A program made the position numbers and the translations under genes. From contig OY253680.1 in assembly GCA_958009085.1 (NCBI GenBank), positions 62,001-126,000 on the forward strand: a stretch of DNA of 64,000 nt, given 5' to 3'. Origin of the DNA: Protoeuglena noctilucae. Its lineage: Eukaryota. Positions within the stretch are counted from its first letter, which is position 1; each line of letters starts with the position of its first letter. The notes beneath the pieces were generated by a model. It did no database searches. It was not told the DNA's origin and saw nothing but the letters and a program-made list of their open reading frames with translations. Below are positions 7,845 through 64,000 of this stretch, piece after piece.

Positions 7845-9956
7845 TCACTCGTCCCCGGCGCTCGCCATGCTCTCCCGCAGGTCGTAGCTGATGAAGGCGT
7901 TCATGTCGCTCAGCATGCCCACCACCACAGCACCCCTCTGCGAGGGCGCAGCGGGGGAGATCGATCCATGCGCGGCTCGAATCGCGCGCTCCAGCCCGGC
8001 ACCCGCTCCCCCCCCCGCTGACGTGGCAGGCTAACATGGAGTCAGGGTTGCCCTGACTCGGGGCCGCTGTCACAGGAACGCAGCTGAGGCCTGCGCGCAA
8101 GCGCCTGACGAGCCAAGCGGCGGCCCTGTTTGATGGAAAGCCTCCCACCCGCCCTCAAACATCCACCTCTCACCTTGGACGCCACCACGTCCTGCAGCGT
8201 GATGCGCAGTGGGTCCCTGGGCTTGACCATGTCGAATATCTCGTCCTTGACGTCCTCGACGCGGTAATCGGCGTCCGGATTGGCCTCCCGGATCGTCTCG
8301 CAGACGGACTTGAACAGCTGGTAGACGTCCGCTTGCGTGAGGTACCCCTTGCAGCCCAGGTCCAGCACGGGCCAGAAGTAGGCGAGGGCCCGCGGCGTCA
8401 TGCGGCCCTCCCACGCGATGAGGAAGGTCAGGAAATCCCGGAACGTCATGTAGGCCCCCCGGCGGCGCCCGGTGGCGTGCTCCTGGAACAGCCGCGACGC
8501 GAACAGCGGCGACAGGCGGCACACGGGCAGCCGGGCGAACTCCTCCCGTGACAGCAGGCCGTCCCTGTCCACGTCGAGGTCGTCAAACATGGAATAGAGC
8601 CACCGGGACTTCTGCACGCTGAACCAGTTCTCCACCAGCCGCCGCATGCTGGCCTCGTCGGCGCCTCCCAGCTCCCGCAGCAGGTGGAGCTCGGAGGTGA
8701 CGGGGGAGACGAGGAGGTCGCGGATGGGGAGGCGGCCGTTGCGGGCGTGGTAGAAGGCGAACTTGAGCACGCTCATGTCGAGCCACGTGGGGACGAAGGA
8801 GCTGAGGTCTTCTGCCACGGGGGCGTCTGTGGGGGCAGAGAGGGTGGTGGGCGGTGATGTGCCAGAAAGGGGAGGCGTGGGAGCTACAGAAGTTGCGACT
8901 GGGGCATCGGGGAAGAGAGCTGGCTGTGAAAGTGTCTGCATGGAGCACAGGGGCCAGTTGGCAGCCCCGCCCGTGCGCCACCCACCCGGGCCGGCCCGGC
9001 TGCCGAAGAGCGGCGCAAGGGGACGCATCAGCAGCATGGCATCTTCCAAATAGGCACTCAGCTCGTCCAGGGTCAGCTTCCCGTCTCCGTCGGCGTCTGC
9101 GAGCAATGCATGGTTCTCGTGGCACCCAAGCGCACACCGCTCTGACCGTGGCAGGAACGTTGCGGCAGGCCTGGCGGGGCCCGCATCACGCAAGGGCAGC
9201 GGCAGCGGCGCGCGTCACCGTATTTCGCGAGATCGAGCCTCAGCCGCGCCGTGAAGCACTGGCGCATGAGGAGCTCGAAGAGGGAGAGGGCCGAGATGCG
9301 GCCGCGGTCGTCCTTGGCCAGCCGCAAGAAGGTGGACGCGCGCAGGAAGCCGTGGACCCTGCGCCGCGCTCGGGCACCGAATGTCTCCTGGAAACGGTCG
9401 GTGACGCGACAGAAGCCCTCGTAGCTGAGCATCTCCTGGTCCGCCCCGGCGTCCGAAGACGCCTCTTTGAGCCAGAACCAAATCGATTCGAGCTCCTCCT
9501 GACTCAGGACCGCGTCCGCGTGGTCTTCCAGCCACATGGCGCGGACGGCCGCCTCGCAGCGCGCGCGGAGGCTCCCGGGGCGCGGGCGGGGGCGGAAGAA
9601 CGTTGGCAGCGAGGCGCCCGCGTTGCTAGAAGGGCCGGCCTCCGCGCGCCGCAGCGTCGCCAGCTCCGTCATTCCGCTGATGTCGCTCTCATCGGTCTCG
9701 CTTCCTTCCGCCGCGTCCGCGGAGGGCCCCTGGGAGCAGCGACGCCGCTGTAACAACGAGCGCCGGAGCGACGCGCTGGGCGGTGGCCGCGTCGGCCACA
9801 CGACAGCAATGCGTGAACGGTCGACTGCCGATGCGGGCAGCAGCGGAGCGCGAATGACAGGGCGCGCGCGAGGGCTCGCACCGGTTCTCGCTGCGACTCC
9901 TCGGCGTCGGCAGCGCGAGCCAGGAGGGCTGCCGCGAGGTCCCGGTGACGCGGCAT
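7845..9956 (-). CDS. PPP2R3C: PP2A B'' regulatory subunit (TON2/FASS/PPP2R3C type)
   Basis: Motifs WLEDHADAVLSQEEL, EF-hands DADGDGKLT and DVDRDGLLS, ENWFS, YFWPVLD, EDVKDEIFDMVKP, and a C-terminal GMLSDMNAFISYDLRE. The start codon is inferred from in-frame splicing. Confidence 0.88.
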
Positions 9957-11053: not shown

Positions 11054-14000
11054 CTAGCCGTCCTGCATCGGCGCCTCCGTCGCGGGCCCGTTCTCGTCCG
11101 GCGGGCCCGCGGGCGCGCCGTTCTCCTCAGCGCTGTCCCTCGCAGACCGGTCCCCCGCCCCGTGCCTCTCGTGGCCTTGAAGCGCCGCGGCTTCGAAATC
11201 CACCGGGACGTCCCCCGCCGCCTCCGCGGCGTCCATCCGCGCTCGCGCCTCCCAGTCCGACACGTCCAGGCTCGCGCCCAGCGGCACCGAGGGCGCTGCG
11301 CCGCCCGTCACCGCCATCGCCGCTTGCAGCCCCTCCTGCGCAGACCCGGCCCACCTGGGCGATCCCGGTGCCGTGTCATCCGCCGCGGTGGATCGCAGAG
11401 TGCCCGCGGCCGACTGCGGGGCGGGAGGAGGCTTGCACGTCAAAGCGGCTCGACAGGAGCACCGTGCACCGTGGAGTGTGGGGCTGCGAGCGAGTGCGTG
11501 ATGCATAACTAGCATGGTCACCTGCCCCCCCGCCTGGCGTCTCATGCGGAACCAGGCGTCCTTGAGCCCCTGCAGCTCCGCCACCATGCGCTCAATCTCG
11601 TACTTGTGCTCGAGCGTCTGCGCCTGGTAATGCTTCAGGTCCTCCTCCATTCGGTTCAGCTGACCGCTCTTCTCCTTATAAGACTTGCGGTAGATGCCGA
11701 GCTGCTCCACCACCTGAGAGGGGAGCGGGGAGAGCGGGGGTGTGGGTGCGGGTGGGGGTTACGGTGACGGGCAGGTGGGAGATGGGGTGGGCATAGAGAG
11801 CAGGCAGCTCTGCGGGTGTCTGACCAGCCCATACGCCCGTCACCTCCGGCCCCGGCTGCCGTGCCAGGATGTTCTTCAGATCAGTTACAAACTCCAACTA
11901 CAGCTTCCGCATCTCCACCCCCCTTCGCCCCTCACCTCCGGCCCCGGCTGCCGTGCCAGGATGTTCTTCAGTTCCAGGTACAGCTTCTCCTTCTCCTGGA
12001 TCATCAGGTCCTTCTCCAGCACCTCCTCTGTCTTTGAAATAAGTCGCCTCTGCAGCACCTGGATGTGCTGGATGTGCTCGAAGGTCTCGGGATCGGAGCC
12101 CTCGAGCTTGCGCCAGCTGCGGGGGGGGAAGGGGGGAGGGGGGTTGAGGGAAAGGGGAGTGAGGGAAGGGGGAATAATGAGTGATGAGGTCTGGGGTGGT
12201 ATCGTGGATGGAGGCTTTGCCTTGCACAGCAGCCGTTGACTGCTGGCGCGAACAATACCACCATCACGCAGCGACGCAACTACTGCTGTCTCCCCATGCA
12301 TGTGCCACTCACCGGTGCACGTTCATGGGCACCATAAGCTCTTCTTGCAGCGCCTTGACCTTGGCCTGTTCCCGCAACAGGCGACGGCGCAGCTGGTGGG
12401 TCTCGTGGCGAAGGCCGCCCACGTCTGGGGAGACATAAGAAGGGGGGGGGGGGGTCAAAAGACTGATTGGTATCACTAAATCATGACCCCAGTGGATGCT
12501 ATGCGTCTCAAAAATTTCACTCAGCTGCCACGCACGCCCTGACCCCACCCGACACCCTCACACACTACACCCTCACCCTCACCCCACCCCCACCCACACC
12601 TCCATAACCAACCACTCACCCGACACGGACGTCTGCAGCGCCTCCAGCTCTGCCTTGAGCACCTCCAGCCTCCTCCTCAGCGCCGTGATCTCCGAAACGC
12701 GGTCCCGGAACTGCGCCTGCCCCGCCGCCAGCATGCTCTGCTGCACCTTGATGCGCTCGTAGACCTGGGGTAAGGGCGGGTGAGGAAAATTGAATGTTGA
12801 TGTAAACAGATAAGAAACTTTATAGAACGCTCTCCTGCAATGGCAAGCATAGGACAGGGGTAACACATTGCCCACCCTCACCTTGGCCAGCTCCTGGTTT
12901 CGCTTGATGAGCTGCGCCCCCAGGATGTCCCTCTCGTTCACCACGATGTCGTACTCCTTCTTCTGCCTCGCCAGCTCCTGGTCGGCCTCATTGATGATGC
13001 GATTGAGCTTCTCCAACTCCTTGCGCTGGTTGGCCACCACCTGCGAGCGAGTAATAATGCTAAAGAAGGGTGACGGTCAAATGTTGGCCATGCGGGTGAG
13101 GCTGTGCAACTCCTCACGGTGAACTGTGCTGACACGAACCACTTTCAATCAATCGAGCAATATGCGAGTACTACCTGTAAACTATCGTCCTCGCCATCAC
13201 CCACCACCCCCTCACCTCGTCGGCCTCGATCACTTGCTGATGCACCTGACCTACACCACAGTCACCCTCTCACCCCATCTCTCCACCCCACCACCCCTCT
13301 CCCCTCACCTCGTCGGCCTCGGTGACTTGCTGCTGCACTTTGCCGAGGTTGTCGCTGATCTGCTCCGTGGCCTTCCCGATGTTCTCCTTCTTCAGCTGAT
13401 ACACCACCATCTCCATGTACTTCTGCTTAATCACGTCCTTCAGCTGCGTGATGGTGTGCGTCTGCGGGCACATGAGAGGTGGGGCGTGAGATACCGTGCT
13501 GTGATGACGTCTATGTCAAGGGATAGCAGCCATAGCAGCACAGCACTGGGTGACCCATGCCAAGCCTTGACTAATGACACACCATGCAACGAATGCCATT
13601 TGCAGCCAATCACTCCTCACCATCATCTTGAAGCGCCGCTTCATCTCCTGGATCTCGTCCTGCGTGCCAGAAACACAGCAAGCAACTGTGCATTTTTTCA
13701 GCAGGCCACCCACACACACTTTCTACCTTCGCATCCCACATACCCACACCCGCACCCCCACCTCCACCCACACCTCCACCCGCACCCACACCCGCACCCA
13801 CACCGCCCTCACCTGCGCCTCCACCAGGTTCTTGCTGTAGAGATTCCTGTCGCTGCGCACCGACTCGTAGAGATTCTGCTGCTGTTTCAAACGCGACTCC
13901 ACCTCCAATATGCGCCGCTGCAGGTCCACGATTGCCACCTCCCGTACCCGCACCTCCTCCAGCGCGCGGACGTGCTTCAGGCTCGCCGCCTCGGACTCTG

Positions 14001-21778: not shown

Positions 21779-23187
21779 GTCAACCAGAGTGCGGATCTCA
21801 ATATATAGACCAGACGTTTTGCAACAGGCCCCCGCGCAGGCAAACATCGCGCGTGGCCCCAGTGCACCCACCAAACTGCACAACCTCGAACAACCATCCC
21901 CGCTGAGAGTTTGCGCGCCGGCGGCCTCCCCGGCGAGCTGCCAGTGCTGCCGCCAGAGCGTGCGTGTCCGCTGGCGTCCAGCTGAAGGCCCCGGACCCCC
22001 GACAACCCCGGCAAAATTCTGTCGGCCCGGTAACGCGCGCCCTGGCGGGGTGGGGGCTTGCGTTGGCGCTCTCGCAGGCCCAGCATCCCCCGTCGTCGTT
22101 GTTAGCGCACCACATCGCCCGGGCTGCGCGTCGTGATTCGACGTCCGCGGCCTGGCGGCGCGACCTACTCCAACATCCGTTCGATCCGCAGCTCCCTGCA
22201 TCGGAAGCGGGCGGGCATCGCCGTCCCGGCGGAGGTTCCGGGCAGAGACGCAGCTGAGCTTGACGAGGCCTCCGCGAGCTGCGCGAGCTTCTGGATCCTC
22301 AGCCCTCACGCGGGAGTTAGAGCTCTCTTCTTCAAGAACGGCTCCGCGGAGAATCCTGCGGTCGCGACGCCCAGGGAGCACGCTACTCACACCCCTGTCT
22401 CGCCGCCTCTTTGCTCGTCGATCTTGACCTTCCGCTGAGTCTGATTGGCATCTGCGCCCCGGCTTCTGCCTCTGTCGGCGGCATGCAGCGCTTGGCGGCG
22501 GCGATGCGCCGCTTCCTCCCAGCTCGGTGCATGCACGCCACTACTTCGCGCTCAGATTTGCGGTCGTTGAGCTGCATGTGGGCCACTGCCGCGTCCCTGT
22601 TGCCTCCTTTTCCTGCAGGACTCCATCCACACAGGACGTATCCTGGCCGTTCAAACCCGCTCCCTCCCCGCCGCCCACCGCAGGGAAGAGACCCGTGCCG
22701 TCGCGCAGGCCCAGGCCCCGTTGCGGGCCTTGCAGGCACGCCTGGACGAGAGCCCGACGGGGCAGCAACGCTAACGCGATTGGCTGCAAGGCTCCACTGC
22801 GCTTGCCGCTGCCCGACAACGTGCCTTGCAGAAAAAGACCATGCGCTTCTGGGCCTTGGAAGCAGTCGCGGGCACGTCAGCGGGGTTCCTGGCGGAGGAC
22901 GCCTCCAGGGCCGTTGCCGCGCCCCTGCTGCCCGCGGCTCTCGAGAGGACGGCCCTGGCCACGCAGTACCTTGACATCAGGTGACGTGGGGTGCGCCATG
23001 ACACTGCTGCCCGGGACTCCTAGCCGCAACTCCACATGCCGTTTGACGTCTGCCGCATGCGTTGGCCTTAACATGTGCAGTAACTGTGGTGACAGTGCGA
23101 GCGAGGGACAACAGCCGCTGGGACCCTAGCCGAGTCGAGGGATTGACGACGACAGGTGGCATGGTATTGAACTTCAGACCCCTCTGT

Positions 23188-26100
23188 CTAGTCCACCGTC
23201 ACCACCACACACTCCTTGGCGACAAAGGCAGCATTTATCACGACAAGCATCCCCTCTAGTTCCTCTGCCAGCGGACTTTTTCTGCCCCTGTCGCCTTCCG
23301 CCACCCCCAGCTCACACAGCGCGCCAAGGGAGAGCCTGAGGGACACGACCGTCTGGGCCGCCAGCTTGCACGGCAAACAAAGGACGTCATCCCTCGTGAA
23401 TGCCATTGAAGAAAACTCTATCTCGGCCGACATTTTGCACACCAGGGCTGGGGGCGTCGCGTGCATGTCCCAGGCATACAGAGTGTTCTCCATGCCGTAA
23501 GCCAGAACGCTGCCGGTCGAGCTCACAGCCATGAACTGCGGAGCGCGGTCAATGGGAGCAGGGACGGCAGCGAAGCCCGCACCTCCGACTTGGAAGGTCC
23601 AGAGGTGGTGCTCTTGCTGTGAAAGGTCAAACTCGTCTCTGTCGTCTCTGCTTCTAGCTGCGACCGCCATCCATCCGCCATCGTAAGACAGTGCTGCGCA
23701 CACGCCCATCATAGCCCTTCCTTTGGGATCGGTGCGAGGCAGCGTCTGCCTGACCTCCCAAGTGGCCGTATCCATTTGCACCAAACTATCGCTGCTGTTC
23801 TGCCACACCCAAGCCTGCTCCCCATCTGGACTCAGGGCGAGGACCGTGCCATCGCTACCTACATCGTCGCCCCACACGACTCTCGCTTCCTCTTCCGAAG
23901 ACGGGACCCAGGCGTACAGAGTGCGCATGATTAGCATGAGGACCTTGTCCCCCCTGGCAAATACGACAGGACGTCTACCCCACCATACCAACTCAAAAGA
24001 CCCCGGCACCTTGGCGCTAGCAACCATCTCCCCTGTCGCCATGTCCCATATCTGCGCCATCCCAGCGTCTGTGACAAGCACGACCCGTGCCTCGTCTGGC
24101 ACTGCAGCCGCAGCTATGATGCCACCAGTCACATGCATCTGCATCTGGCACGCGCGCTGGCCCGTCGGGGCATCCACAACAACCGCTGTGCTCGTAGTGC
24201 CCGAATCACCCTCCCTACTGGAACTCAGCACCAGCAAATGCCCGGTTCCACCGGGCGACAAAAAGACCTCATCGCTCACTACAGCGGCGGCAGCTTTCTC
24301 CCCAACCACGACAGGCTCAACGGACAGCTGGCCAAAAGTAGGCAATGCATCCTATACCAACGTCGTCCCAACAGTTGTGCTGCAAGCAATCTTGCTCCAG
24401 GCAGGGTCCATACATATAGCACCCGGGGCTCCGTTTGCCCGAAACACAGTGCGTACCCCACCCGAAGATGTGTCATGCAAACGCAGCTCGAAACGCTCGT
24501 CGCCCACCATGCTTGCTATGAGCAACAAGGTCCCTTCTGGACTGAAACACACTGGGGTGTCCCTGTCTTCAAGGGGAATTCTTGCCCGCTCTTGCAGCGT
24601 CTCTGCATCATACACAACCGCGCCCTTGGCTGTCCTGGTGGCCACCAGCGAACCAGTGCCGCTGACCCAGGAGCGCACGCCATCTATGGTCCCACGATGC
24701 TCACCCGCCTTCGTGTCCCAGACCAGCACACTCCCGATGGTGGGCACTGCTGCCGTCAACACGGTGCCCGCGACACTGGCTGCGATGCCCAGGTTCGGTC
24801 CAAGCAGCTTATTGTCGTCGTCGTCGTCGTCATCAGGAAAAGCAAGCTCAAGAGACCCCTCCAATTCTGCCCGCAGTTGCCCCGATTGCACGTCGAAAAC
24901 CTGTGCCGAGCTGCCCCGGTGCTTTACAGCCACCCACGTGCCATCTCCGCCCATCATCCCCAGCTGCACGACCAAGGGCGTTCCCACATTGGGTGCACCG
25001 AGTGCACCAGGGACCGCCAGCTCCTGCCACACTCCGGGCACACTCCATTGACAGTACCCTTGCAAAGTGACGGCCCCCACAGCCTTCCCTCCATCCACGA
25101 ACCCGGCATCGTGCACGAAGTCAACATCTTCTTTGAGGGTCTGGCAAACTCCAGAGGCACAGTCAACGATGTGGAGCTCATGTCGAGTCCACATCATCAG
25201 CATAGCCCCGTCGGGACTGAACTGCATCCCTTTCGCCTGGTTGCCGACTGAAGGCACCTCCGTGACCACGGTCAAAGTGCCCGTGATGGTGTCAAAGAGA
25301 CCGACGGTCTCCCTATCCACGACCGCCAGCATGTCGCCCTTGGGCGACAAAGCCGTGACACTCACAAATCCAGTCAGCAGTACTTGCGCCTCCGGGAAGT
25401 CATCCATGGCCCCCACGCGCACCCTGTCGCCCCTCAGCCCCTGACGCACGCAAGCATCCCCAGCAGCGTGCATCCATGTGCCCTTTGGCGCCAACCCCGC
25501 CGCATGGACAGCAAGGCTGGGGTTGTTGACGAGGGCAGCGGAGAAACACCTGGGAGTGACACACAGCATGGAGAGGGTGACGTGAGCTTCATGCGCAGAT
25601 TGCGCCGTGGACGAGCATGTCACCCATCCCCACCGCCGCTAACCTCAGCCACGCCCTCGTCTCCTGCGCCAAGGCGGCCTTGGGATGTGACGCCGTCGTC
25701 AACGCCTGCACCGCCCTCGCCACGTCCCTGACCAGCCGCTGCATCTCCCCCGCCTCCGCACACGCCCGCACGTACCCCAGGCTCGTGCACACCATCGCAA
25801 CCACGTCCAGCTCTCCAGCCTCCTCCGCGTGGTGCAGCGTGTACACGCTGGGATACGCCCCAAGCGTCTCCACCAATGTCCCGCTCCTCCCTCCCACCCC
25901 CGCCGCCTCCACCTTGCGCCCCCACACTGCGGCATGCACCGCGTGGCCCACTCGCACGTCCACGTGCCACCCTGACCCCTTGTCCTCCGCCAGCCAGTCC
26001 ACCACAGACCTGCAAAGCGCGCAAAAGAATGCGTCAGGCCCACTCCTCTGCTCTGCTCTACACGTCACCAGCTGCCGCGCCTCTAGCAACGCACGCTCAC

Positions 26101-29100
26101 TTGTGGAAGGGCCGCACGCGCCCGTCTGCACCCACAGGGAACAGGCTGCCCATGGCCCCCAGCACGCGCCCAGCAACGCCCGCGTCCTCCTCGCCGTGCT
26201 GGACCAGCTCCTGCAGCTCCGACAAGCTCAGCGGCTCCACTGCCGCCACCAGCGCCGGCAGCACCCGCGCCCGCACCACCTGCACGTCCCGCTCCGACAG
26301 CGCCCTGAACTGCCTGTCGAAGTACTCCTTGTACAGCGCCCGGTGCCCCTCCGGGAGATCCCCCACCGCCATGTTGGCCACCCCGCCCTCCACCTTTGCC
26401 CCCACCTCCCGCTGCACCATGCCCACCAGCGCCGCCACGTACGCGAACACCCCCGCGCTCTTCCCCTCCAGCGCCTCCACCACCGCGCCCCTCTCCTCCT
26501 CGCTCAGTCCCTCGCTCCTCAGGCTCCCCCGGATGTACGCCCGGATGTCCTCGCGGTTGCGCTCCTCGCTCGGCTCCAGCGTGAAGGGCTGGAACCGCGC
26601 CACCTGCCGCACGATGTAGTCCTCCGGCCGCGACGTCACCAGCACCCGCACCCACCCTGGCAGCTCCCCCACGCACCCCGACAGCACCTGCAGCACCCCG
26701 TTGCTGCGTGCGTCCGTCCCCGCCTCGTCCACTGCGTCGATCACCAGCACCACTGGCGCCTTTTCCCAAGCAACGCCCTTCAGCGGCCCCACCACCAGGC
26801 TGCGGGGGGGGCAGGGTTGACGTCGATGGGGGTGTTCAAGCACACTTGGATGACTGGTCCCCACACGTGCCATCCAGTGCGCATCCAACTTACCTCCGGA
26901 ACCAGTCCATGGCCGTGCCGTTCAGGTCCAGCCCCCGCAGCCCCTCCTCCACCGCCGCCGCTGCCTCGGGCACTGCCTCCGCCACCTGGTACGCCAGCGA
27001 CTGCACCATCACCCTCGCGTCCGTCCTCGACTCGTCCCCTGCCCGGCAGAAGTGCCCCCCCAGCAGCCGCCCGGCCTTGTGCAGCTCCAGCGCCACGTGC
27101 GCGGTGAACGCCGTCTTGCCCATGCCTGCGATGGAGCAAGGGGGGCGTAGCATCAGATTTGACTTGTCATCCAGTGTCATAACACATGATGCAGCCCTTC
27201 GCTCGCCTGGAAGGGACAGCAGCAGGAAGACATTGCCGGAGCGGTCCGCCTTGCCCCCCGGAGTCGCCTTGCCATCCACCCACGCCATGACCTCCTCGGC
27301 CAGCCACCCGCGCGTCCCCACCTGCGAAACAAACTTGACCCGACGATCAGGTCAACGCAAACACCCCGACGTCGGCCCTTCCCACACGTTTGCGGCCATG
27401 CACTCTCGCTCACCATGAAGCCCGCCTCGCGCAAGTCGACATCGTGCAGGAAGTCGTGGTGCTTCAGCAGCTTGGCAAGCTCCTCCAGCGACCCTCCCGC
27501 TGCCTCAGCCTTCTCCTCCCCTCTCTCCGTGGCTTGCGTCACGGCTGCCGCCAGGTTCCTGGCGCTCGCGCGCTTGCCCGCCCCGCCCTGTGCCCCGCTC
27601 CTGCCCTTGCCCGCGGTGTTCACGTGCACGTACCACAGCACGTCCCGGAACCGCACGCTGCCCCACTCCAGCTTGCCCCTGCGCTTGGCACCCTGCGCCA
27701 GCTGGTACAGGTTCTGCGCCTGCAGCCTGTCCGTCGGCGCCAGCATCCGGTGCAGGTCCGTCTGCACGAACTCGGCCAGCTCAGGCGGCGAGAGCGTCTC
27801 CTGGTACCACCGCGCGGCCTCCTCCAGGATCGGCAGCTCGTCGTTCAGAAGCGCTATCTCAAACACGCCCCACTCCATCTCCGCCGCCACGTGCGCGAAC
27901 CCCTCGTCCTCGTCCACCCACAGCCGCCGCAGCTCCCCCGGCAGCTTCTTCACCTCCTGCGGCTCCGCATCCAGCACCTGCCCGATCTTGCGCTCCAGCG
28001 CCTGCAAGCCCCTGTCCATGCGCTCCCCCAGCGCCGCCACCTGCTCCCCCACGTTCTGCACCAGCCCCGCCAGCACTTGCTCTCCCGGCGCCAGCAGCCC
28101 AAACACCGTGTCCACCCTGTCCCGGTCGGCCAGCACCGCCCGCAGCTGCCCTGGCGACGCGTCCTCCAGCCGCGTTGCACCGACCTCCTGGGCCAGCCTA
28201 TCCGCCAGAGTCCTGCTCGAGAGCAGGTTGCCGCCCTCCACCGCCGCCCGGATCTCTTGCACCCCGTGTAAAGCCTGGACCTGCATGGCCGCCGTCAGGA
28301 CCCCCACCTGCGCCAGCACCTTGCTCGCCAGCTCCTGCAGCCCGTCCATGTCGCCCCGCGCCTGCAGGAACCGCCCCAGCCACGTCCGGTCCTCCACCTG
28401 CTGCACCAGGCCCGCAGCCTCCTCCATCAGCCCTGCACGCAGCAGCGAGACGGGGGATCGGCGAGTCATACTGCACAGTCCCTTCATTCGCACGAATCCA
28501 TCTGATTCCGCCGCTCTCTCCGCACCCCTGAGCTCCTCCAGCGCCCTCGTGTGCTTGCTCAGCACCTTGTGCGCGCCCACCACCACCTCCATCACCCCCG
28601 CCACCACGCGCTTGAAGTCCTCCACTGCTGCCCTCACCGACACCGCCTGCGGAGCGACGGCAGGGGCGCTCGTTTCTCGTTTGCACCGCCAGTCGGCTCA
28701 CGGCACGTGCTTCGAGCAGCCACCATCGCCCTTACCTCGGCGATGCCGGCCATGACCCTTGACGCCACCTCCGCCAAGGGCCCCACCATGGGCGCCCTCG
28801 CCAGCACCTCCATCGCCTGCATGCCGCCCCTGGCCAGGATCCGCAGCACCTCCCCCGTCACGCTGTTCTTCTGCGGCGTGGCGCATTGCAAGCACGATTG
28901 CTCACAAGCTCGCGGGGCGAAGCGCAGTCGCGCATGCGGCTGCAGCGGTCACCTGCAGCAGGGTCACGATCGCAGGGGACAGCGGCGCCACTGTGTCCCA
29001 CATCTTCTGCGGAAGCGAAGATAAACTGACTGGCGTCGAATGTGCTCACGCGGCCTTTGCCAGGTAAAACCAGCCACGCCTGCACCAACCTGCAGTTCGG

Positions 29101-29157
29101 CCACGCGGCCTTGCCAGCCCTCTTGCGCGGCCACAGCGCGTTCCGCAAGAGACTCAT
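23188..29157 (-). CDS. NLR-like STAND protein: helical N-terminal domain + NACHT NTPase + WD40-like repeats, with an in-frame TAG at 24352-24354
   Basis: Motifs VGTRGWLAEEV, Walker A SLPG|MGKT, GGHFC..DARVMVQSLAYQ, Walker B VVLVIDAVDEA, RVLVTSRPE and winged-helix PFHKSVVDWL. Beta-propeller repeats follow (LSPKGD, FSPDGA, VWDTK, IWDMATGE, LSPDGE). Confidence 0.85.
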
Positions 29158-29747
29158 GGTCTCCAGACACCGCGGAGCCCTGCGCGGACAAAGAAGACGA
29201 AGAAGCAGGGCGGTTGGAGGTCGCTTCACACATGTGATGTAATTAGCTGAGGCATGGACACAGGGGTCGCCCTACTTGATGTCAGAAGCCTCTGACCTGC
29301 TTATCGTTTACGACTTTATCCGGTGCAGCTCCTCCGGACGCGTTTCCGCCCCGCGCTCGCTCTCCGGGCCTGCTTTCCTCGCTCGCATCTCCCGCCGCTG
29401 GCTTGCTCGCCCCGCAGCCCATCGGGCCTATCGCTTTGTGTTGCCTGCGGCAGATGATATCGCTTGCTTATTTTGAGCTCGCTTATGCCGAGGGAGCCCC
29501 GATAGACAAAGAATAACTTACCTTTAGACCCCAAGCTCTGCTTGACCTGCACAGTGGCGGGGACACCGTTGCAAAGGCTTGGGCGTTGAAGAGCGTCCTA
29601 GGAGCGTGGCGCGCAGGCGTCCCAGTCCGTGCCGCGCCCTTGTGCACGAACGAGCCACAGCAAATGTTTGGCCCATAGCTGCAGTGACCTGTGCGGGACG
29701 GCAACAAATTCACAATCATCGGGAAAACCGCGAGTCTGGCGTCAGTA

Positions 29748-36601: not shown

Positions 36602-39512
36602 ATGTCTTCCGCGGCAGATGCTAATGAGCAGGTGGAGGCTCTGAAGGCCGAGGTGGAGCGGCTGCAGGTGCGCGTCTCTGGGCCGGCCTGGCGATGTGCT
36701 GCAACCCGCCCAACACTTCGCGACGGGCCACCGCCTGCGCCGCGTCGTTTTGCGAGACGCGAGCTGCGCATGCGGCCGGCAGCGATGTACGAGGGATCGG
36801 TGCTTCCAACGGATCTGCGGATGGAGATCCGCTTGCGGCGGGGCCTGGGCAGAGGATCGAGCGGGCCCTAGCAATCCCCTGCCAACCGGTGCGGGCTGGG
36901 CAGGACGAATACCAGACATTCAGTTGTCAACCAATCGTTTCCCCGCTCCGCGTGCCCGCCAGCCCGTTCTGGGCCTCCCACTTGCCGTCCCACCATGGCG
37001 CGCAAGCCGCCAGACGGGCCTACGCCCCCGCGCCTCGCTGAGGGTTTTGGCGACTCGCAGTGGCTCCGATATCTCCTTGACATCAATCTGCTCACCCGGT
37101 CTTTGCCGAAACGCCACCCGCGGCCTCCACAAGCCGCACTGACCACCGCTGCGCTGTGCTACGCCCCGCAGGTGGAGCTGCGGGCGCGGGAGGTGGCGGC
37201 GGACCCCGTGTTCCCCTACTCGCGGACGTACGGCCGCACGGACGTGTCGACGATCCTGCAGGCGCCGGACGAGGGCCTGTCGCTGGTCGGGCGGGTGCTC
37301 CGCGTAGGCGGCTGGGTCCGCACGGGGCGTGAGGCGGGCGCCGGGGCCTTCGCGTTCGTCGAGGTGAACGACGGATCGTGCTTCGAGTCGATCCAGGCCA
37401 TGGTGCCCAAGGAGGTGGCGGAGGCCTTCTCGGCCGAGGGCCTCAAGACGCTGACCAACACGGGCGCGTGCGTGCTGCTGGAGGGAGAGCTCGCACGCAC
37501 GCCCGAGGGCACCAAGCAGCTCGTGGAGCTCAAGGTGTCCCTGGTGTGCCACGTGGGGCCCTGTGACGGTGCCACGTACCCCATCGCCAAAAAGAAGCAG
37601 AGCTTCGAGTATCTGCGTGAGAAGATCCACTTGCGGCCCAGGTGAAGGGGGAGGGGTGTGAGTAGTACTAGTGCGATGTGAGGTGCATGGATAGCCATGC
37701 TAAGGGTGTCAGCTGCCATGTCAGAGCTGCAATGTGAAAAGAGAGAGACCAGACCCTTTCAACCCCCTTTGGCTCGCCCTCCCTGCAGGACCAACACGAT
37801 TGGCGCGGTGGCGCGCATCCGCAACGCCCTGGCCTACGCCACGCACATGTTCTTCCAGCGCCACGGTTTCAAGTACGTGCACACGCCCATCGTCACGTGC
37901 TCCGACTGCGAGGGCGCGGGGGAGCTCTTCCAGGTAAAAAGGGCGGCTTACGTGTGATGCTTGTGTGTGCGTTTGCGTGTCACGGCAGCTGACAGTGGCA
38001 GCTGATGGGTCTTGGCGCAGTTCACAGTGCGCTCAAGTCGCTCCATCCCTCCACACTGACCCTACGTAGTGCACAATGCTGTCTCCACCCCCCCTGCAGG
38101 TGACGACGCTGCTTCAGAACGCAGAGCGTCTGTCCAAGGAGCCGAGGCCCACGGAGGCGGAGATCGCGGCGGCGGAGGCGGGCGTGCGGGCGCAGGAGGA
38201 GCGGTGCGCAGAGGCGAGTTGGCAAGGGGTGGGGTGGATGGGATGCCAGTGGCAGGGTGGATGGGATGCGGGTGGAAGGGTGGAAGGGGGGACCTCTCTT
38301 GAGCCCCGTTACACCGACACGCTTAGCTGCCATCAACATCACCCCACGTCCTATCACACCGACATCCCCCGTACCGCCACGCTCCGCCGCCCTTGTCGTC
38401 ACCCATGTCCCCCCGCTAAACGCCCGCAGCTCCGCGACAAGGCTGCGGCGGGGGACAAAGACGCGAAGAAGAAGACCAAGGGTGCGGACGCAGAGCTGGT
38501 GACTCTGAAGAACGGACTGGAGTCTTTGCGCAAGGCGTCGCGTGTCGTGGGGGGCCTTCCCCACACTGAGGCCGGGGGCATCGACTACGCAGACGACTTC
38601 TTCGGGAAGCAGGCGTTCCTCACGGTGTCGGGCCAGCTGGAGGTGAGAGACGCGCGGCGATCGGCGATGGTCTGGGGAATGTGTGGTGACGTCCTGGGTT
38701 GGCGCCGGATGCCTGCTGCCAGTCCTTTTGTTCGTACGTCCCATGCGGTGCCTGGGATCGTTTCTGGCCATCTGACATCCCCTGACGTCATGTCGTGTTT
38801 CCTTGTATCCCCTCGCATCCACCTCGCATCCACTACCGCAGGGCGAGACGTACGCGTGCGCGCTGTCCAAGATCTACACCTTCGGCCCCACCTTCCGCGC
38901 CGAGTACTCCTTCACGTCCCGGCACCTCGCGGAGTTCTGGATGATCGAGCCCGAGATGGCCTTCTGCGACCTCGAGGACGACATGCGGTGCGCCGAGGAC
39001 TACGTCCGATCGTGCTGCCTGTACGTGCTGCGGACGTGCCGGTCGGACCTGGAGTTCGTGCAGAAGATGGTGGACCCCACGTGCATCGAGAGGCTCGAGC
39101 ACGTGGCCTCTTCCTCGTTCCAGCGGTGCTCGTACACGGAGGCGATTGAGATCCTCGAGAAGGCGGTGCGCGAGGGCAAGAAGTTCGAGTACGAGGTCAA
39201 GTGGGGCATCGACCTGCAGTCGGAACACGAACGGTACATCACGGAGGTGAGGGGGCGTGGGGTGGGGTGTGGTGGTGAGACGAGGATGGGTGCCGGGCAG
39301 TGTGGAGCGTTACATGGGTGGAACAGGGGTGCGTGCCGTGCTGTTTGCAAGAAGGGCACGAGAGATTGCCACATGTCGTTTGACCCTTAGGCCCGTTATG
39401 CGACGAGCGGGGACCTTACGCTTGAGGGCCACTCGATGCCGTGCCACTCCGGCCAGCTCCGTCGGCGCCGCTCTCGTCCGCAGGAGGTGTTCAAGCGCCC
39501 CACGATCGTGTA

Positions 39513-39551
<39 letters not shown>

Positions 39552-39840
39552 GAACGACGACGGCAAGACGGTGGCGGCCATGGACGTGCTCGTGCCCAAG
39601 GTCGGCGAGCTCATTGGGGGCTCTCAGCGAGAGGACCGACTGGACGTGCTCGAGCAGCGCATCACGGAGGCCGGTATGGACCTGGCGCCCTACCAGAACT
39701 ACCTGGACCTGAGGCGCTTCGGCACCGTGCCGCACGCCGGGTTCGGCCTCGGCTTCGAGCGCCTCATCATGTTTGCCACGGGATTCGAGAACATCCGGGA
39801 GGTCATCCCCTACCCCCGCTGGCCCCAGCACGCCACCTAG
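36602..39840 (+). CDS. NARS1: Asparaginyl-tRNA synthetase (with a helical insertion)
   Basis: Motifs [92 protein letters not shown] and IPYPRW. Confidence 0.96.
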
Positions 39841-51281: not shown

Positions 51282-52896
51282 TCAGGCGGCCTGGCCGTGG
51301 CTGAACTCGGCCCGCAGCTCCTCCACTCTGCGCATCACCAGCCCCGGCTCCCCGCCCGTGTTGACCAGATCCGCGCCGAGTTCGGCCAGCAGCAGCACGG
51401 CCTCAAACAATCCGCGGCGGGACGTTGCGACTGTGTAAATGGGCGTGTGCCCCTCACTGTCCCGCGCCTCCAGGTCCGCCCCGGCGTCCACCAACAGGTC
51501 CACGCATGCCGAGTGTCTGACCCAGTGCAGGGGCGTCCTGAGCTCCCCGTCGACTGCGTTGGGGTCCGCCCCCGCCGCCAGCAGCAGCCGCGCCACCCAC
51601 ACAGCAGCGAGGGTTTGAGAGCGGTTAAACGCGTGATGGAGGGGCGTCATACCAGATCGGTCCTTGCAGTTGACGTCCGCACCCAACTCGAGCAGGGCGC
51701 GGACGGCGTCCACGCGACCGTCACAGGAAGCCTGGAGCAGCGGAGAGTCTCTGACACCGTCGCCCTGGACGCTCACCCCCCGCGCCGCCAGGCACCGCAC
51801 GACATCCCCGTTCGCCACCTCGTGCATCGCAGTGTGCCCGTAGCGGCTACTGCGATCCACGTCCGCCCCCGCCTCCAACAACACCTCCATCAAGGCCACA
51901 TCGCCACGACTTGCAGCGTACAGAAGAGGCGTAAAACGGCTAGAAAGAGCTGAACAGTTGACGTCCGCACCCGCCTCCACCAACCGCCTCACGATGCCCG
52001 GCGTCGCATGTCCATAGCACGCTGTCGCCAACGTCTGGTCCTGGCCGTCAGCGCCGACCTTTGCCGACGCCCCCGCCTCCAGCAGCGCCTCCACCACCGC
52101 CTCGTGGCCCGCACTGGCCGCATGCACTACCGCCGTCTCCCAGCCCAAATCGCCACCAGGCGCATCAATCTCCGCCCCCGCTGCCAGGCACGCCTTGACG
52201 GCCTCCAAGCACCCCCGCGCCGCGCAGTACATCAGCGGCCATGCCCTGTGCAGCCGCCGGTTGACGTCCGCCCCCATCGCCACCGCTGCCCCCACCGCCC
52301 GCGCCACCTCCTCGTCCCCCAGCGCGTACGCCCACTCTATCTTGCCATCCGCCCCCCACCCCACCGGCAGCCTCGCCTGCACCGTCAACATCAGCGGGGA
52401 GCGGTCCACGTAATGGAAGGCCCACGATATGGCGTTGATATCCGGCCCCTCCGCCACCAGAAGGGCCAGCCACCACTGTGCCAGGCTCGCCAGGTGGTGC
52501 ACGTGGGACCCATCAAACGCCCACACCACCAGGGGACCGAAGTCGATATCAGCATCAAGCGCGCGATGGCCGAAGCGCATGCGGATGTCGCCCCGCCTGT
52601 CCTCCACTGTCGCCCAGATGCCCCACGCCCCCCACACCTCGTCCACCTCGTCGCGCATCTCCCGCGACACCTTCCGCGCCGCCGCCGCGTCGCTCAGGGG
52701 CACCAGCCGCAGAATCTCGCGATGCATCTCCTCGGGCAAGTCACTCCAGCCTGCGAGGGCAAGCAGATACGCTTTAGGTTGAAACGAGGCGGTTGCTGCC
52801 CACGCAAACCAAACGCCCTCCTATGCGCGCCTCACCCACGCGCGGACCGATACTCTTGGCCCCGGATGACCGCTTGACCTTACGCCCGCCAGCCAT
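51282..52896 (-). CDS. F-box + ankyrin-repeat protein
   Basis: A short first exon MAGGRKVK..V is spliced to GWSDLPEEMHREILRLVP..ARKVSREMR (F-box), followed by about 8 ankyrin repeats (TPLLYAA, TPLHHA, GADVN, TPLHW). Confidence 0.88.
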
Positions 52897-61300: not shown

Positions 61301-64000
61301 CTACGCGGCCTTGGGCTTCTTCGCCCCTTTCTTCGGCTCGTCCTCGAGGTCCTCCGTGTCGTAGATCCGCTTCGGCTGCGTCTTGGAGTACGCGCTCATC
61401 AGACGGTCCACCACCTCGTCCTTGGCCCCGTCATGCCGCAGCAGCTGCTCCCTCGCGTCCTCCAAAACATTCTTCGTGAGCTCCCCCGACTTCGCGACCA
61501 TGTCCCGCACGAACAGCGCGTGGTGCGTCGAGCCCATGCGGCCGGGGCCCTTGACGTCGCCCAGACCCTGCAGTGGCCGAGGAGGGCGTCGTTGTTAACG
61601 GGTGGTGGTGTTATGAAGCATAGTGTTATGGCAGCGCGGGTACAGCCATAGCACGTCATGAGGCGCAGCATGAAGGAGAGGACAGCCACGCTGCACGGGC
61701 GCTGCACAGTCTCCTTCACAAGAGCCATGTACCCCTCTCTCTCCCCCCGCCTGGCTCGTCACCTCATCTCCTCTACCACCGCTCTCTCATCATCCCCTCA
61801 CCTGGCTGGGCCTGGTCTTCTCCTTATATCACCATGCACCCCTCTCATTATTCCCTCGCCTGGCTTGTCATCCCATCTCCGCTACCAATGCTCTCTCATA
61901 TTACTCCCTCACCTGGCTCGGCCTGGTCTTTTCCTTGGGATGCACGAAGTTCCTGTCAAAGGGCTTCCGCGCTTTCTTCCAGGGGAGGTCCTCGCGGATG
62001 GCGGCCTGCGTGGGATTCGAACATTCGCAGATTTGAATGGGAATGGGTTGTAGATGGGAATGATGGCAAGTAATGTGAACGAAATGTGGGAGGGGTGAGA
62101 GGGCGAGGGAGCTTGGATGGGTGAGAGTAGAGTAAAGAGAGCTTACAGAGTGGCTGGGCAATAGGTGATGGCGCACAGCGTGGTTGAGCAAGAGAGAGTA
62201 GTCAGCAACTCAAATGCAGCTTGGCTGTCTTCCACAATGTCTCACCTGTGGCAGGTACACCCTCTGCGGCATCCAGTCCAGGGGGTCAGCGGCGCGGGCC
62301 TGGGGGAGACGAGAGAGGGAGGCAAGCATTTCATATTAAGCAATTACATATGCTGATACTAGCACATGTCAGGTCATGCGATGCCACACACCGCCCTTGC
62401 ATCACCAGCGACCACAGACACCCACACCCCCACCCCCACACCCACACTGCTACCCACCCCCACCCCAACACCCCCACCCACACCCACCCCCTCACCTTGA
62501 CTGCCATGGCCAGCAGCGCCCCCTTGCTGCTCATGCGTGGGTTGTACAGCACCGTCAACACCCCCTCCTTGCGCCCCCCGTGACCCACGAGGATTTGATC
62601 AATCTTGTCGTGCCACTCCAGGCCCACCACGCTCCCGGACAGGCCCAGCATGCGTTCCACCTCTCCCGTCTGCGGAACGGTGGGAGTGACTTTGATAGAG
62701 AACGTAGTACTAGCATTGCAGTATCCAGTACTAGCATGGGGTGACGTCCTAGCGTGCAGTGACACACCACCAAGGTAGTCATGAACACCAGCTGCCCGTT
62801 GTCCCCATCCCTCCCATCTCTCAGCATAACCATCACACCACTCTCACCTCCGCATTCAAAAACACCAGCTGCCCGTTGTCCCCGTCCCGTGCCGCGCTCG
62901 TCCCCGTCGCCACCACTCTGTCCCCCGGCCCCAGCCTCACTGCCGTGTTCTCATGGGTATTTAAAAGACCCTCACGCACCCACACCGCCTTCTTCAGATT
63001 GCGCTGGTCCCTGCGAGCGTGGCAGTGTAGAGACGGGGGTTATAGAAGGGTCCTATAGGAAGGGTCACCCTTCTTCTCATTGTCGTGCTGGCGGTGCAAT
63101 AGGCGCCAGCCAGTATGCTCGCCATTGCTGCTCAGCGCTACCACTGCTCTGCACCTTCGCTACACCCCCAATCCCACCCCCACCCGCACCCCCCACCCCT
63201 CACCACCGCTATGCACGCACACCCCACAAGCACACCCCACATAACCCACCCCATCCTCACCCCATCCTCACCACCGTTACATCCCCCCCCCCATAAGCAC
63301 ACCCCTCCTCACCACCTCGCCACCGTCCCGTCCGTGCTCCTCGACACGAACCCCAGACCATCTCTGAAGAACTGCACCGAAGACACCGACTCCCCGTCCG
63401 CATGGGCAGACCGGAAGAGGTGCTTGGGTCTAGTCGCGTAGTTCCACTCCTGCCGGCCCTTGCCGAGGATGTCGGCGTTGGCGACTAACACCGTGCCCAC
63501 GGCCGCGCTGTAGCCGAACTTGCCGCGGACGTCGTAGAGGTGCACGGAGCCGTCCTTGAGGCCCGCGGCGATCTGTTGGGGGGGGGTGGGGGTGTGGTGG
63601 GGTGGTGGGGGGGGGGTGGGAGGTGGTGGGGTGGGTTGAACGGCGATGTGTGAGGGGTCTGGGTGGGGGTGAATGCATACGTGGATATACGCTCATCCCA
63701 CCCCACCGCCCCCACACCCATGTCCCCCCCCGTCCACCCCTCACCTGTGCCCCGTCGTTGCTGTATGCGCAAGTGGACACATGCACCCGCGTTCCCGGCC
63801 GCACGGGCTGTGGCTTGATGACGGTCGTCTGCTTGATCTCCCAGAGGTCCCAGGCACGCACGGTGCCGTCCTCGCTCGACGTGATGGCTGCGGGAATAGG
63901 GGGGGTGCATGCCGAAAAGGAATGTTGATAAGGAATGTACAAGTGAAGGTGGTGGATGATGGGTCACACTCTCTTATCCCGCTTATCCATCAATGCCGCC
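61301..64000 (-). CDS. WDR70: WD repeat protein WDR70/GAD-1, 3' portion
   Basis: Motifs TSSEDGTVRAWDL, TCAYSNDG, VSRSTDGT, LEWHDKIDQI..VLYNP..S.KGA, EDAREQLLRH and AYSKTQP. Confidence 0.88.

Follow-up and report, generated by a model that had tools for sequence, protein, structure and literature searches.

The 64,000-nt window analyzed here (contig OY253680.1 of Protoeuglena noctilucae; all coordinates refer to this stretch) contains, on its minus strand, a gene that we consider a probable 'all-in-one' receptor of the STAND/NLR type. The encoded protein would combine an MLKL-type four-helix bundle, a linker, a NACHT-clan nucleoside triphosphatase (NTPase), a WD40 propeller and, possibly, a second propeller. 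The gene has at least nine coding exons (29003-24355); the in-frame model starts from the ATG at 29003, spans 3930 nt and encodes 1310 amino acids (aa) up to the first stop codon. The gene structure, the transcription and splicing in the sea, the order of the domains and their sequence homology are read directly from the data described below.

The public runs matching the gene were marine metagenomes, marine metatranscriptomes and a run with a coded organism label. Three RNA runs (X9, X10 and X11) and one DNA run (X1) were used, all as contigs; relatives of the protein are denoted P00xx. The gene is transcribed and spliced in marine communities, as observed in three metatranscriptome runs, and four of its eight coding introns (introns 4, 5, 7 and 8) were seen joined in marine metatranscriptome contigs. 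All peptides quoted in the first-pass annotation of the window were located on the minus strand, in several reading frames, and assembled into the in-frame nine-exon model. The effector-NACHT-propeller order that it had proposed was borne out by the domain matches and the gene model.

The N-terminal domain

The MLKL_N-like four-helix-bundle domain (28261..28870, minus strand) covers approximately aa 18-160, is encoded by exons 2-4 and has the conserved core RTWLGRFL..A..D.DG. Pfam MLKL_N (PF22215; curated cut-off 27 bits) matched seven of the 11 relatives scanned, in each case in one register (profile positions ~29-130), with E-values of 3.8e-6, 1.2e-4, 1.6e-3, 5.7e-3, 0.015, 0.026 and 0.17. 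The best score belonged to P0006 (26.9 bits, E 3.8e-6); the open reading frame (ORF) of the window scored 12.3 bits, with E 0.12. The remaining four relatives were not matched; P0004, P0010 and P0012 lack the core of helices 3-4, and P0002 begins inside it.

Two family profiles, A1 (9 rows) and A4 (12 rows), were searched against the PDB sequences (n = 177,635 for A1). Profile A1 gave nine matches at E ≤ 10, the top seven of which were all MLKL (best E 1.3e-4, bias 0.0). With profile A4, all six matches at E ≤ 10 were MLKL (best E 1.7e-4, chain residues 15-124). For both profiles, the MLKL chains were the sole PDB matches at E below 0.2. The shared core, R-[ST]-x-[ILV]-x-R-[FL]-L-x-A-x-x-D, aligns with NRSNICRFLTASQD of human MLKL. 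Because the Pfam match recurs in the same register in the relatives and MLKL tops the profile searches of the PDB, we accept the N-terminal domain as a predicted homolog of MLKL_N at the profile level, below the level at which Pfam annotates single sequences. The protein is not an MLKL ortholog, since the bundle is followed by a NACHT NTPase and not by a kinase; no kinase family was matched by Pfam in the seven ORF pieces of the window.

The first-pass annotation had suggested a candidate MLKL/HeLo-type domain and named RPW8 among the related bundles. The MLKL part of that suggestion is supported by the profiles. HeLo, Helo_like_N, SesA, Goodbye and RPW8 gave no match at E ≤ 1 in seven window pieces and 11 relatives, with the reservation that the HMMER filters may hide very weak matches. 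We take the accessions of the HeLo, HeLo-like, Goodbye and RPW8 families to be PF14479, PF17111, PF17107, PF17109 and PF05659. A phmmer search of P0009 against the PDB sequences gave no match at E ≤ 1. In the ESM Atlas, MLKL_N was present in six of the 30 nearest clusters, and the top clusters were fungal, which we treat as a lead only.

The AlphaFold2 (AF2) models of the bundle were all-helical, with the expected order of helices and with low confidence, from alignments of just 9-12 sequences. Beyond the label 'four-helix bundle', they were too uncertain to refine the description of the domain.

Several observations weigh against the reading of the gene as a receptor with an MLKL-type effector. 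Not one single sequence reached the MLKL_N cut-off (26.9 vs 27 bits at best; 12.3 bits for the window ORF). The predicted local distance difference test (pLDDT) of the bundle was low, with a mean of 58.5 in the first model and values of 44-57 for blocks of 10 residues in the second. The fold searches returned generic four-helix bundles, such as FAT, the vinculin tail and talin, with a best E of 0.15 in Foldseek and a best Z of 12.1 in VIA-align; Foldseek found no PDB match at E ≤ 0.001 for either AF2 model, and no MLKL chain was among the fold-search matches shown, which does not exclude MLKL. Within aa 1-200, no segment of transmembrane strength was found (maximum 19-residue Kyte-Doolittle mean of 1.14). 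Moreover, the P-loop of the NTPase is atypical, with S replacing the first G of GxxxxGK[ST], and an in-frame TAG in the propeller region could be the sign of a truncated or decaying copy.

A chance resemblance of an alanine/leucine-rich helical bundle to MLKL, with an N-terminus that is in fact unrelated, would account for the single-sequence scores below the Pfam cut-off, for profile E-values no better than ~1e-4, and for structure searches that do not pick MLKL. We consider this explanation improbable. MLKL_N recurs in the same register in seven of the 11 relatives, down to ~31% mutual identity, and two differently built profiles ranked only MLKL at E < 0.01 among 177,635 sequences that include many helical bundles. 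The alignment of the shared core with human MLKL also speaks against coincidence.

The NTPase

The protein is predicted to contain a NACHT-clan STAND NTPase within a tripartite effector-NTPase-repeat layout. Pfam NPHP3_N, a family of the NACHT clan, matched exon 6 (E 6.3e-9, 36.7 bits; cut-off 24.8 bits) and exon 7 (E 4.4e-5, 24.2 bits). In the intron-poor relative P0009 the same family scored 63.1 bits and was aligned over profile positions 1-164 of 164. Pfam NACHT (PF05729) stayed below its cut-off of 26.7 bits, with 11.8 and 19.0 bits in the window ORFs and 22.2 bits in P0009; its E-value on exon 7 was 1.3e-3. The motifs follow each other in the order P-loop SLPGMGKT, Walker B VVLVIDAVDEAG, LVTSRPE and RPFHKSVVDWL, where the motif names are those that we take to apply. 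In line with the NACHT module noted in the first-pass annotation, NPHP3_N was above the cut-off on one exon and the motifs were present.

The atypical Walker A noted there is also genuine. The SLPGMGKT sequence is built by a GC-AG splice that is present in an RNA contig, and it is kept in P0009 and in P0006/P0019. Because it is kept in these relatives, the S in place of the first G is a trait of the family and not an error.

JGI metagenomes were scanned with the NACHT alignment, and the best 80 of 206 confirmed loci were considered. These relatives were distant (22-40% identity), and no close member of the family was among the best 80 of the 206 loci. ORFs were taken from 22 of the 80 loci, mostly higher-ranked ones, and 19 were scanned; L009 and L012 (near-duplicates of L007 and L011) and L010 (an ORF of 119 aa) were left out. 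All 19 were of the NPHP3_N type, with TIR in five, HEPN in one, WD40 in two and TPR in four. Since relatives that bear TIR or HEPN also score best with NPHP3_N, the best NPHP3_N score is an ambiguous sign of grouping with NPHP3, NWD1 and TANC proteins.

Family and copies

The ORF of exons 3-4 (411 aa, including an in-frame intron) was used as the query of a HMMER search among 1.84 billion representatives. Just 12 proteins were found, all of them fragments derived from metagenomes; judged by this search, the family is very rare. Relatives with 85, 62, 55 and 42% identity are located on other long contigs, and the mutual identity decreases to ~31%. In the DNA run, the propeller part formed one 4.4-kb contig with a depth of 30.6. 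The N-terminal and NACHT parts were broken into contigs of 195-332 nt that have loose ends, with a summed depth of up to 91.5 (~3x), a pattern that fits modules shared among copies and is not a copy number.

We also observed a mosaic relative. P0014 (477 aa) is identical to the window ORF (27414-28646) over residues 1-~240 and to P0001 from residue ~280, which reflects either recombination or an assembly chimera. Taken together, the diverged copies, the mosaic and the depth pattern are behavior typical of NLR families.

A non-immune STAND scaffold of the NPHP3/TANC/NWD1 kind, for instance a ciliary or signaling protein in which the N-terminal helices serve as a protein-binding module, has to be weighed at this point. 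NPHP3_N is the best Pfam family, as it also is in all 19 of the nearest relatives, six of which bear TIR or HEPN. A weak HTH_TANC1 match in P0009 (E 0.36), the flagellar gene CFAP58 in the window, the lack of a transmembrane-like segment and the generic protein-binding bundles (FAT, vinculin) returned by the fold searches would agree with such a scaffold. The profile searches, however, single out MLKL among solved proteins, and the diverged copies and the mosaic do not resemble one conserved ortholog. The near absence from 1.84 billion representatives likewise fits a conserved housekeeping gene poorly, and we regard the scaffold as unlikely.

Further searches for members of the family gave little. 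In the word-index search, which covered some lengths and the 8000 best word-sharing candidates, no 'longer' protein with exon 4 was found; region 160-1050 of P0009 retrieved only P0009 and P0028 (some lengths, 8000 candidates), and profile A1, at 'near' lengths, only P0011 and P0012. The PADLOC models matched none of five pieces. A tblastn search with the gene model returned just the gene itself, so that no second NLR was found in the window.

P0009 (1119 aa) carries ~160 extra residues before the bundle, which have no Pfam match. It begins with MGCGAS, presumably a myristoylation/palmitoylation signal. P0028 (657 aa) consists of a protein kinase domain and the last ~190 residues of a P0009-type protein (99% identity), and represents a genuine fusion to a kinase or else a chimera of the assembly.

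The propeller region and the in-frame stop codon

Exon 9 (24355..25549, with 24358 as its last position in the nine-exon model) encodes a WD40-type beta-propeller region of 397 aa. Against the PDB, it matched the WD40 chain of PkwA (5yzv_A, E 2.1e-10) in two stretches; the matches to Pfam propeller families were weak. The long propeller region described in the first-pass annotation is supported by the 5yzv match, but it is split by an in-frame TAG stop (24352..24354), which lies between two propeller-sized blocks. Even if it ends at the TAG, the predicted product has all three parts of the layout.

The stop codon is followed in the same frame by a propeller-like ORF of 387 aa (23188..24351), which ends at a second TAG (23190-23188). 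Its PDB matches were 1l0q_A, a surface-layer protein (E 7.2e-7), and 1jju_B (E 8.3e-3). The codon-position GC pattern is equal before and after the first TAG, and the RNA contigs stop 30-50 nt past the second one. When the two propeller blocks were compared with each other, no significant similarity was found (best E 0.069); as judged from their sequences, they are not recent copies of each other.

The TAG is crossed with no joint and with no differing letter by X10 record 9 (23139-25408), X11 record 16 (24136-24792) and, at the DNA level, X1 record 1 (23100-26122). Because RNA contigs of two runs cross it unspliced, the TAG is part of the mature mRNA. A short in-frame intron (30, 42, 60 or 90 nt) that would remove it was considered and rejected, as the RNA contigs of these two runs are unspliced there. 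TAG as a sense codon was also considered; the other in-frame stop that was noted, in an aminoacyl-tRNA synthetase gene of the window, is probably intronic. Three readings are left for the TAG: it is a nonsense allele of recent origin, it is read through, or it marks the true end and is followed by a 3' untranslated region (UTR) of 1.2 kb. In the first two cases, the second propeller is possibly a part of the receptor.

The GC content at third codon positions (GC3) is 0.88-0.93 in the N-terminal and NACHT exons (25644-28870) and 0.57-0.75 in the propeller part (23188-25549). The drop begins at the start of exon 9, well before the TAG, and hence is not a consequence of it.

These data also bear on the explanation that this copy is truncated or decaying, the TAG being a recent nonsense mutation and the propeller drifting, so that perhaps no working receptor is made. 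We hold this to be quite unlikely. Correctly spliced transcripts of the gene are present in three metatranscriptome runs, the 1310-aa product has the full effector-NTPase-WD40 layout, and the TAG falls between two propeller-sized blocks. The lower GC3 of the whole propeller part counts in favor of decay, but it starts at the beginning of exon 9, before the stop. What remains in favor of decay is the presence of the TAG in both RNA and DNA contigs and the coding-like ORF of 387 aa behind it.

The linker

Between the bundle and the NTPase lies a family-specific linker of ~270 aa (aa 161-442). It had no Pfam match in the window ORFs or the relatives and no PDB sequence match in a profile search. 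The linker includes a conserved sub-domain (27618..27965, minus strand; aa 259-374) with the pattern EPQEVKKLP..LW.DED..W..LAP... In the AF2 model of P0009, the corresponding residues 229-351 had pLDDT values of 73-95. The best VIA-align match of this sub-domain was the EF-hand part of the Cbl TKB domain (6xar_A, residues 176-265, Z 9.1), with a root-mean-square deviation of 2.4 over 88 residues and a Z-score close to those of the unrelated matches below it. The loops of the sub-domain are not canonical calcium-binding loops. On the basis of this model, the sub-domain is possibly EF-hand-like, and we use this as a lead only. The linker domain is one of three unusual features of the gene, the others being the stop codon that separates the propellers and the decrease in codon bias.

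Gene structure and transcription

The eight inferred coding introns are 81-94 nt long; seven are of the GT-AG type and one is GC-AG. A further GT-AG intron of 117 nt is located in the 5'UTR (29180..29296, minus strand). An RNA contig of X10 fits the window up to 29183 and continues with 30 letters from 29301-29330; because four letters, GCAG, fit both sides, the cut was placed at GT..AG. The transcript start lies upstream of 29297.

Exon 1 (28953..29003) comprises 17 codons, the first of which is the ATG (29003-29001), and its start is uncertain. A second ATG, at 29157, shares the frame of the main ORF only if an unverified 79-nt intron (29085-29007) is removed, and represents either an upstream ORF or the true start reached through this putative intron. 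The ATG at 29003 is the safer start, because the one at 29157 is out of frame without the unverified intron. The gene end at 29157 given in the first-pass annotation needs correction, as the ATG there is out of frame unless that intron is used and the 5'UTR intron (29296-29180) lies beyond it. Support for intron 1 comes from X10 and X11 RNA contigs, whose loose ends at 28874 contain a slight variant of exon 1 that is joined to exon 2.

Exon 2 (28736..28870) encodes the first helices of the N-terminal domain (..APMVGPLAEVASRVMAGIAE) and exon 3 (28526..28646) the segment AVSVRAAVEDFKRVV..LEELR. They are separated by intron 2 (28735-28647, GT-AG), for which no RNA joint was found among the matches shown. 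The joined peptide of exons 2 and 3 is an unbroken ORF in the relatives P0012, P0025 and P0026, which confirms the junction GIAE|AVSV from the first-pass annotation. The gap that had been left there between LEELR and MEEAAG corresponds to intron 3 (28525-28433), which is 93 nt long and in frame. An X10 RNA contig ends at its edge, at 28433, and the relative P0019 has the joined form without it; the intron is kept in an X9 contig. The X9 contigs are unspliced over introns 1-3, and are taken to stem from pre-mRNA or from library DNA; we do not count them against the introns.

Exon 4 (27414..28432) covers the end of the bundle and the linker. Exon 5 (27207..27321) opens the NTPase and runs into the P-loop, of which it contributes the first half. 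It has RNA joints on both sides in X10 record 12, across intron 4 (27413-27322, 92 nt) and across the GC-AG intron 5 (27206-27126, 81 nt), which lies inside the P-loop. Exon 6 (26894..27125), also with an RNA joint, completes the P-loop (SLPG|MGKT) and encodes the N-terminal part of the NACHT module. For intron 6, no RNA joint was found among the matches shown; in P0009, an unbroken ORF carries the joined peptide across introns 4, 5 and 6.

Exon 7 (26101..26799) contains Walker B, LVTSRPE and the helical/winged-helix parts up to RPFHK, and is 54% identical to P0009. Intron 7 (26100-26010, 91 nt) is joined in X10 and X11 RNA contigs. Exon 8 (25644..26009) starts with SVVDWL.. and encodes the helical domain after the NTPase. 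For intron 8 (25643-25550, 94 nt), X11 provides the RNA joint, and an X10 contig has a loose end at 25551 in which the end of exon 8 is found.

Relation to known systems and possible function

In fungi, NLRs whose N-termini are MLKL-like, HeLo-like or of the Goodbye type are well documented, according to the accessible text of PMC9815663. The fungal all-in-one NLRs covered there, i.e. the basidiomycete BaMLKL-NACHT and the combinations of HeLo-like with NACHT/NB-ARC and WD40, TPR or ANK, are the closest known kind (PMC9815663). They share with our protein the order of a four-helix-bundle effector, a NACHT-clan NTPase and a repeat sensor. As far as that text goes, BaMLKL likewise scores near or below the Pfam thresholds for MLKL-type profiles. 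An AF2 model, of low confidence, suggests one more helix ahead of the bundle and a short one between helices 3 and 4, as described for BaMLKL (PMC9815663). Unlike the fungal proteins, the present one comes from a different kingdom-level lineage, a marine GC-rich flagellate eukaryote; HeLo, Helo_like_N and Goodbye gave no match at E ≤ 1 among window ORFs and relatives, and the protein possesses the conserved ~270-aa linker, possibly EF-hand-like in fold, and the P-loop SLPGMGKT. The likeness to fungal HET-E/NWD receptors that had been drawn in the first-pass annotation is limited to the layout, as no HET match was found and, where that type has highly similar tandem WD40 repeats, the two propeller blocks here show no significant similarity (best E 0.069).

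In MLKL, the bundle is combined with a brace and a pseudokinase, and phosphorylation by RIPK3 activates the protein. The bundle of vertebrate MLKL (PDB 6zvo, 2msv, 4btf and others) is predicted to be homologous to ours at the profile level, including the RFL..A..D core; unlike in MLKL, the bundle is here fused to a NACHT NTPase and propellers. To our knowledge, NPHP3, TANC1/2 and NWD1, which share the best Pfam NTPase family with the present protein, have no MLKL-type N-terminus; some of them have TPR sensors.

N-terminal bundles of plant NLRs and algal NLR-like proteins with TIR or CC/RPW8-like domains are reviewed in the accessible part of PMC10952240. Plant RPW8/CC NLRs and plant MLKLs follow the same logic, in which a bundle is fused to a STAND NTPase and to sensor repeats and the outcome is cell death (PMC10952240; 10.1101/681015; accessible parts of both). 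Plant NLRs use NB-ARC and LRR, whereas the present protein has NACHT of the NPHP3_N type and WD40, with no RPW8 match at E ≤ 1. By their description, the NACHT-WD40 proteins of Chlamydomonas reinhardtii are also similar, with a NACHT NTPase and C-terminal WD40 (PMC4773052). The accessible text of that paper describes no N-terminal effector domain, and the term 'N-terminal' occurs in it 0 times. In the literature searched, whose coverage left out most subscription journals and supplements, we found no description of an MLKL-type domain on a NACHT protein of algae or marine phytoplankton. The green-algal origin put forward in the first-pass annotation is presumptive; what was observed are marine or coded run labels, the GC content, the short introns and the nearby CFAP58 gene. 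Overall, the sequence comparisons support the present gene as a candidate NLR with an MLKL-type four-helix-bundle effector in a new lineage.

The function can be modeled on MLKL, fungal HeLo-like NLRs and plant CC/RPW8 NLRs. In such a model, the propeller would sense a ligand or a disturbance and release the NTPase, the released NTPase would oligomerize, and the clustered N-terminal bundles would attack the membrane, so that the cell is killed or arrested. A possible role is abortive infection against large DNA viruses of marine picoplankton. We infer the oligomerization, the membrane attack, the trigger, the immune role and the cell-death function by analogy with these systems.

A more far-reaching proposal would be a marine-picophytoplankton-specific class of sense-and-kill NLRs, in which an MLKL-type pore domain is held by a new EF-hand-like linker, abortive infection is directed against giant algal viruses, and read-through of the TAG gives one- or two-propeller receptors from one mRNA. 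In this complete form, we find the proposal very doubtful.

Four-helix-bundle executioners on STAND NTPases have been described for fungi and plants, and MLKL for animals. If the all-in-one receptor has the function outlined above, this cell-death logic would extend to abundant unicellular plankton, and the family would offer concrete candidate genes for regulated cell death and for resistance to viruses in the marine environment. It would also provide a data point on whether such fusions are ancient or have arisen repeatedly. The gene is expressed in natural communities, and the isolated domain is short and hence easily tested.

Genomic surroundings

The GC content of the window is 59-71% per 2 kb. 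The neighboring genes encode an EF-hand protein (8045-9214), the flagellar protein CFAP58 (12582-13076), an F-box/ankyrin protein (51285-52820) and a WD40 fragment (63312-63692). We also observed a class II aminoacyl-tRNA synthetase in two plus-strand ORFs (38776-39387 and 39391-39837), which share one frame and are separated by one stop codon. The stretch around this stop, which is not aligned to the profile, is probably an intron.

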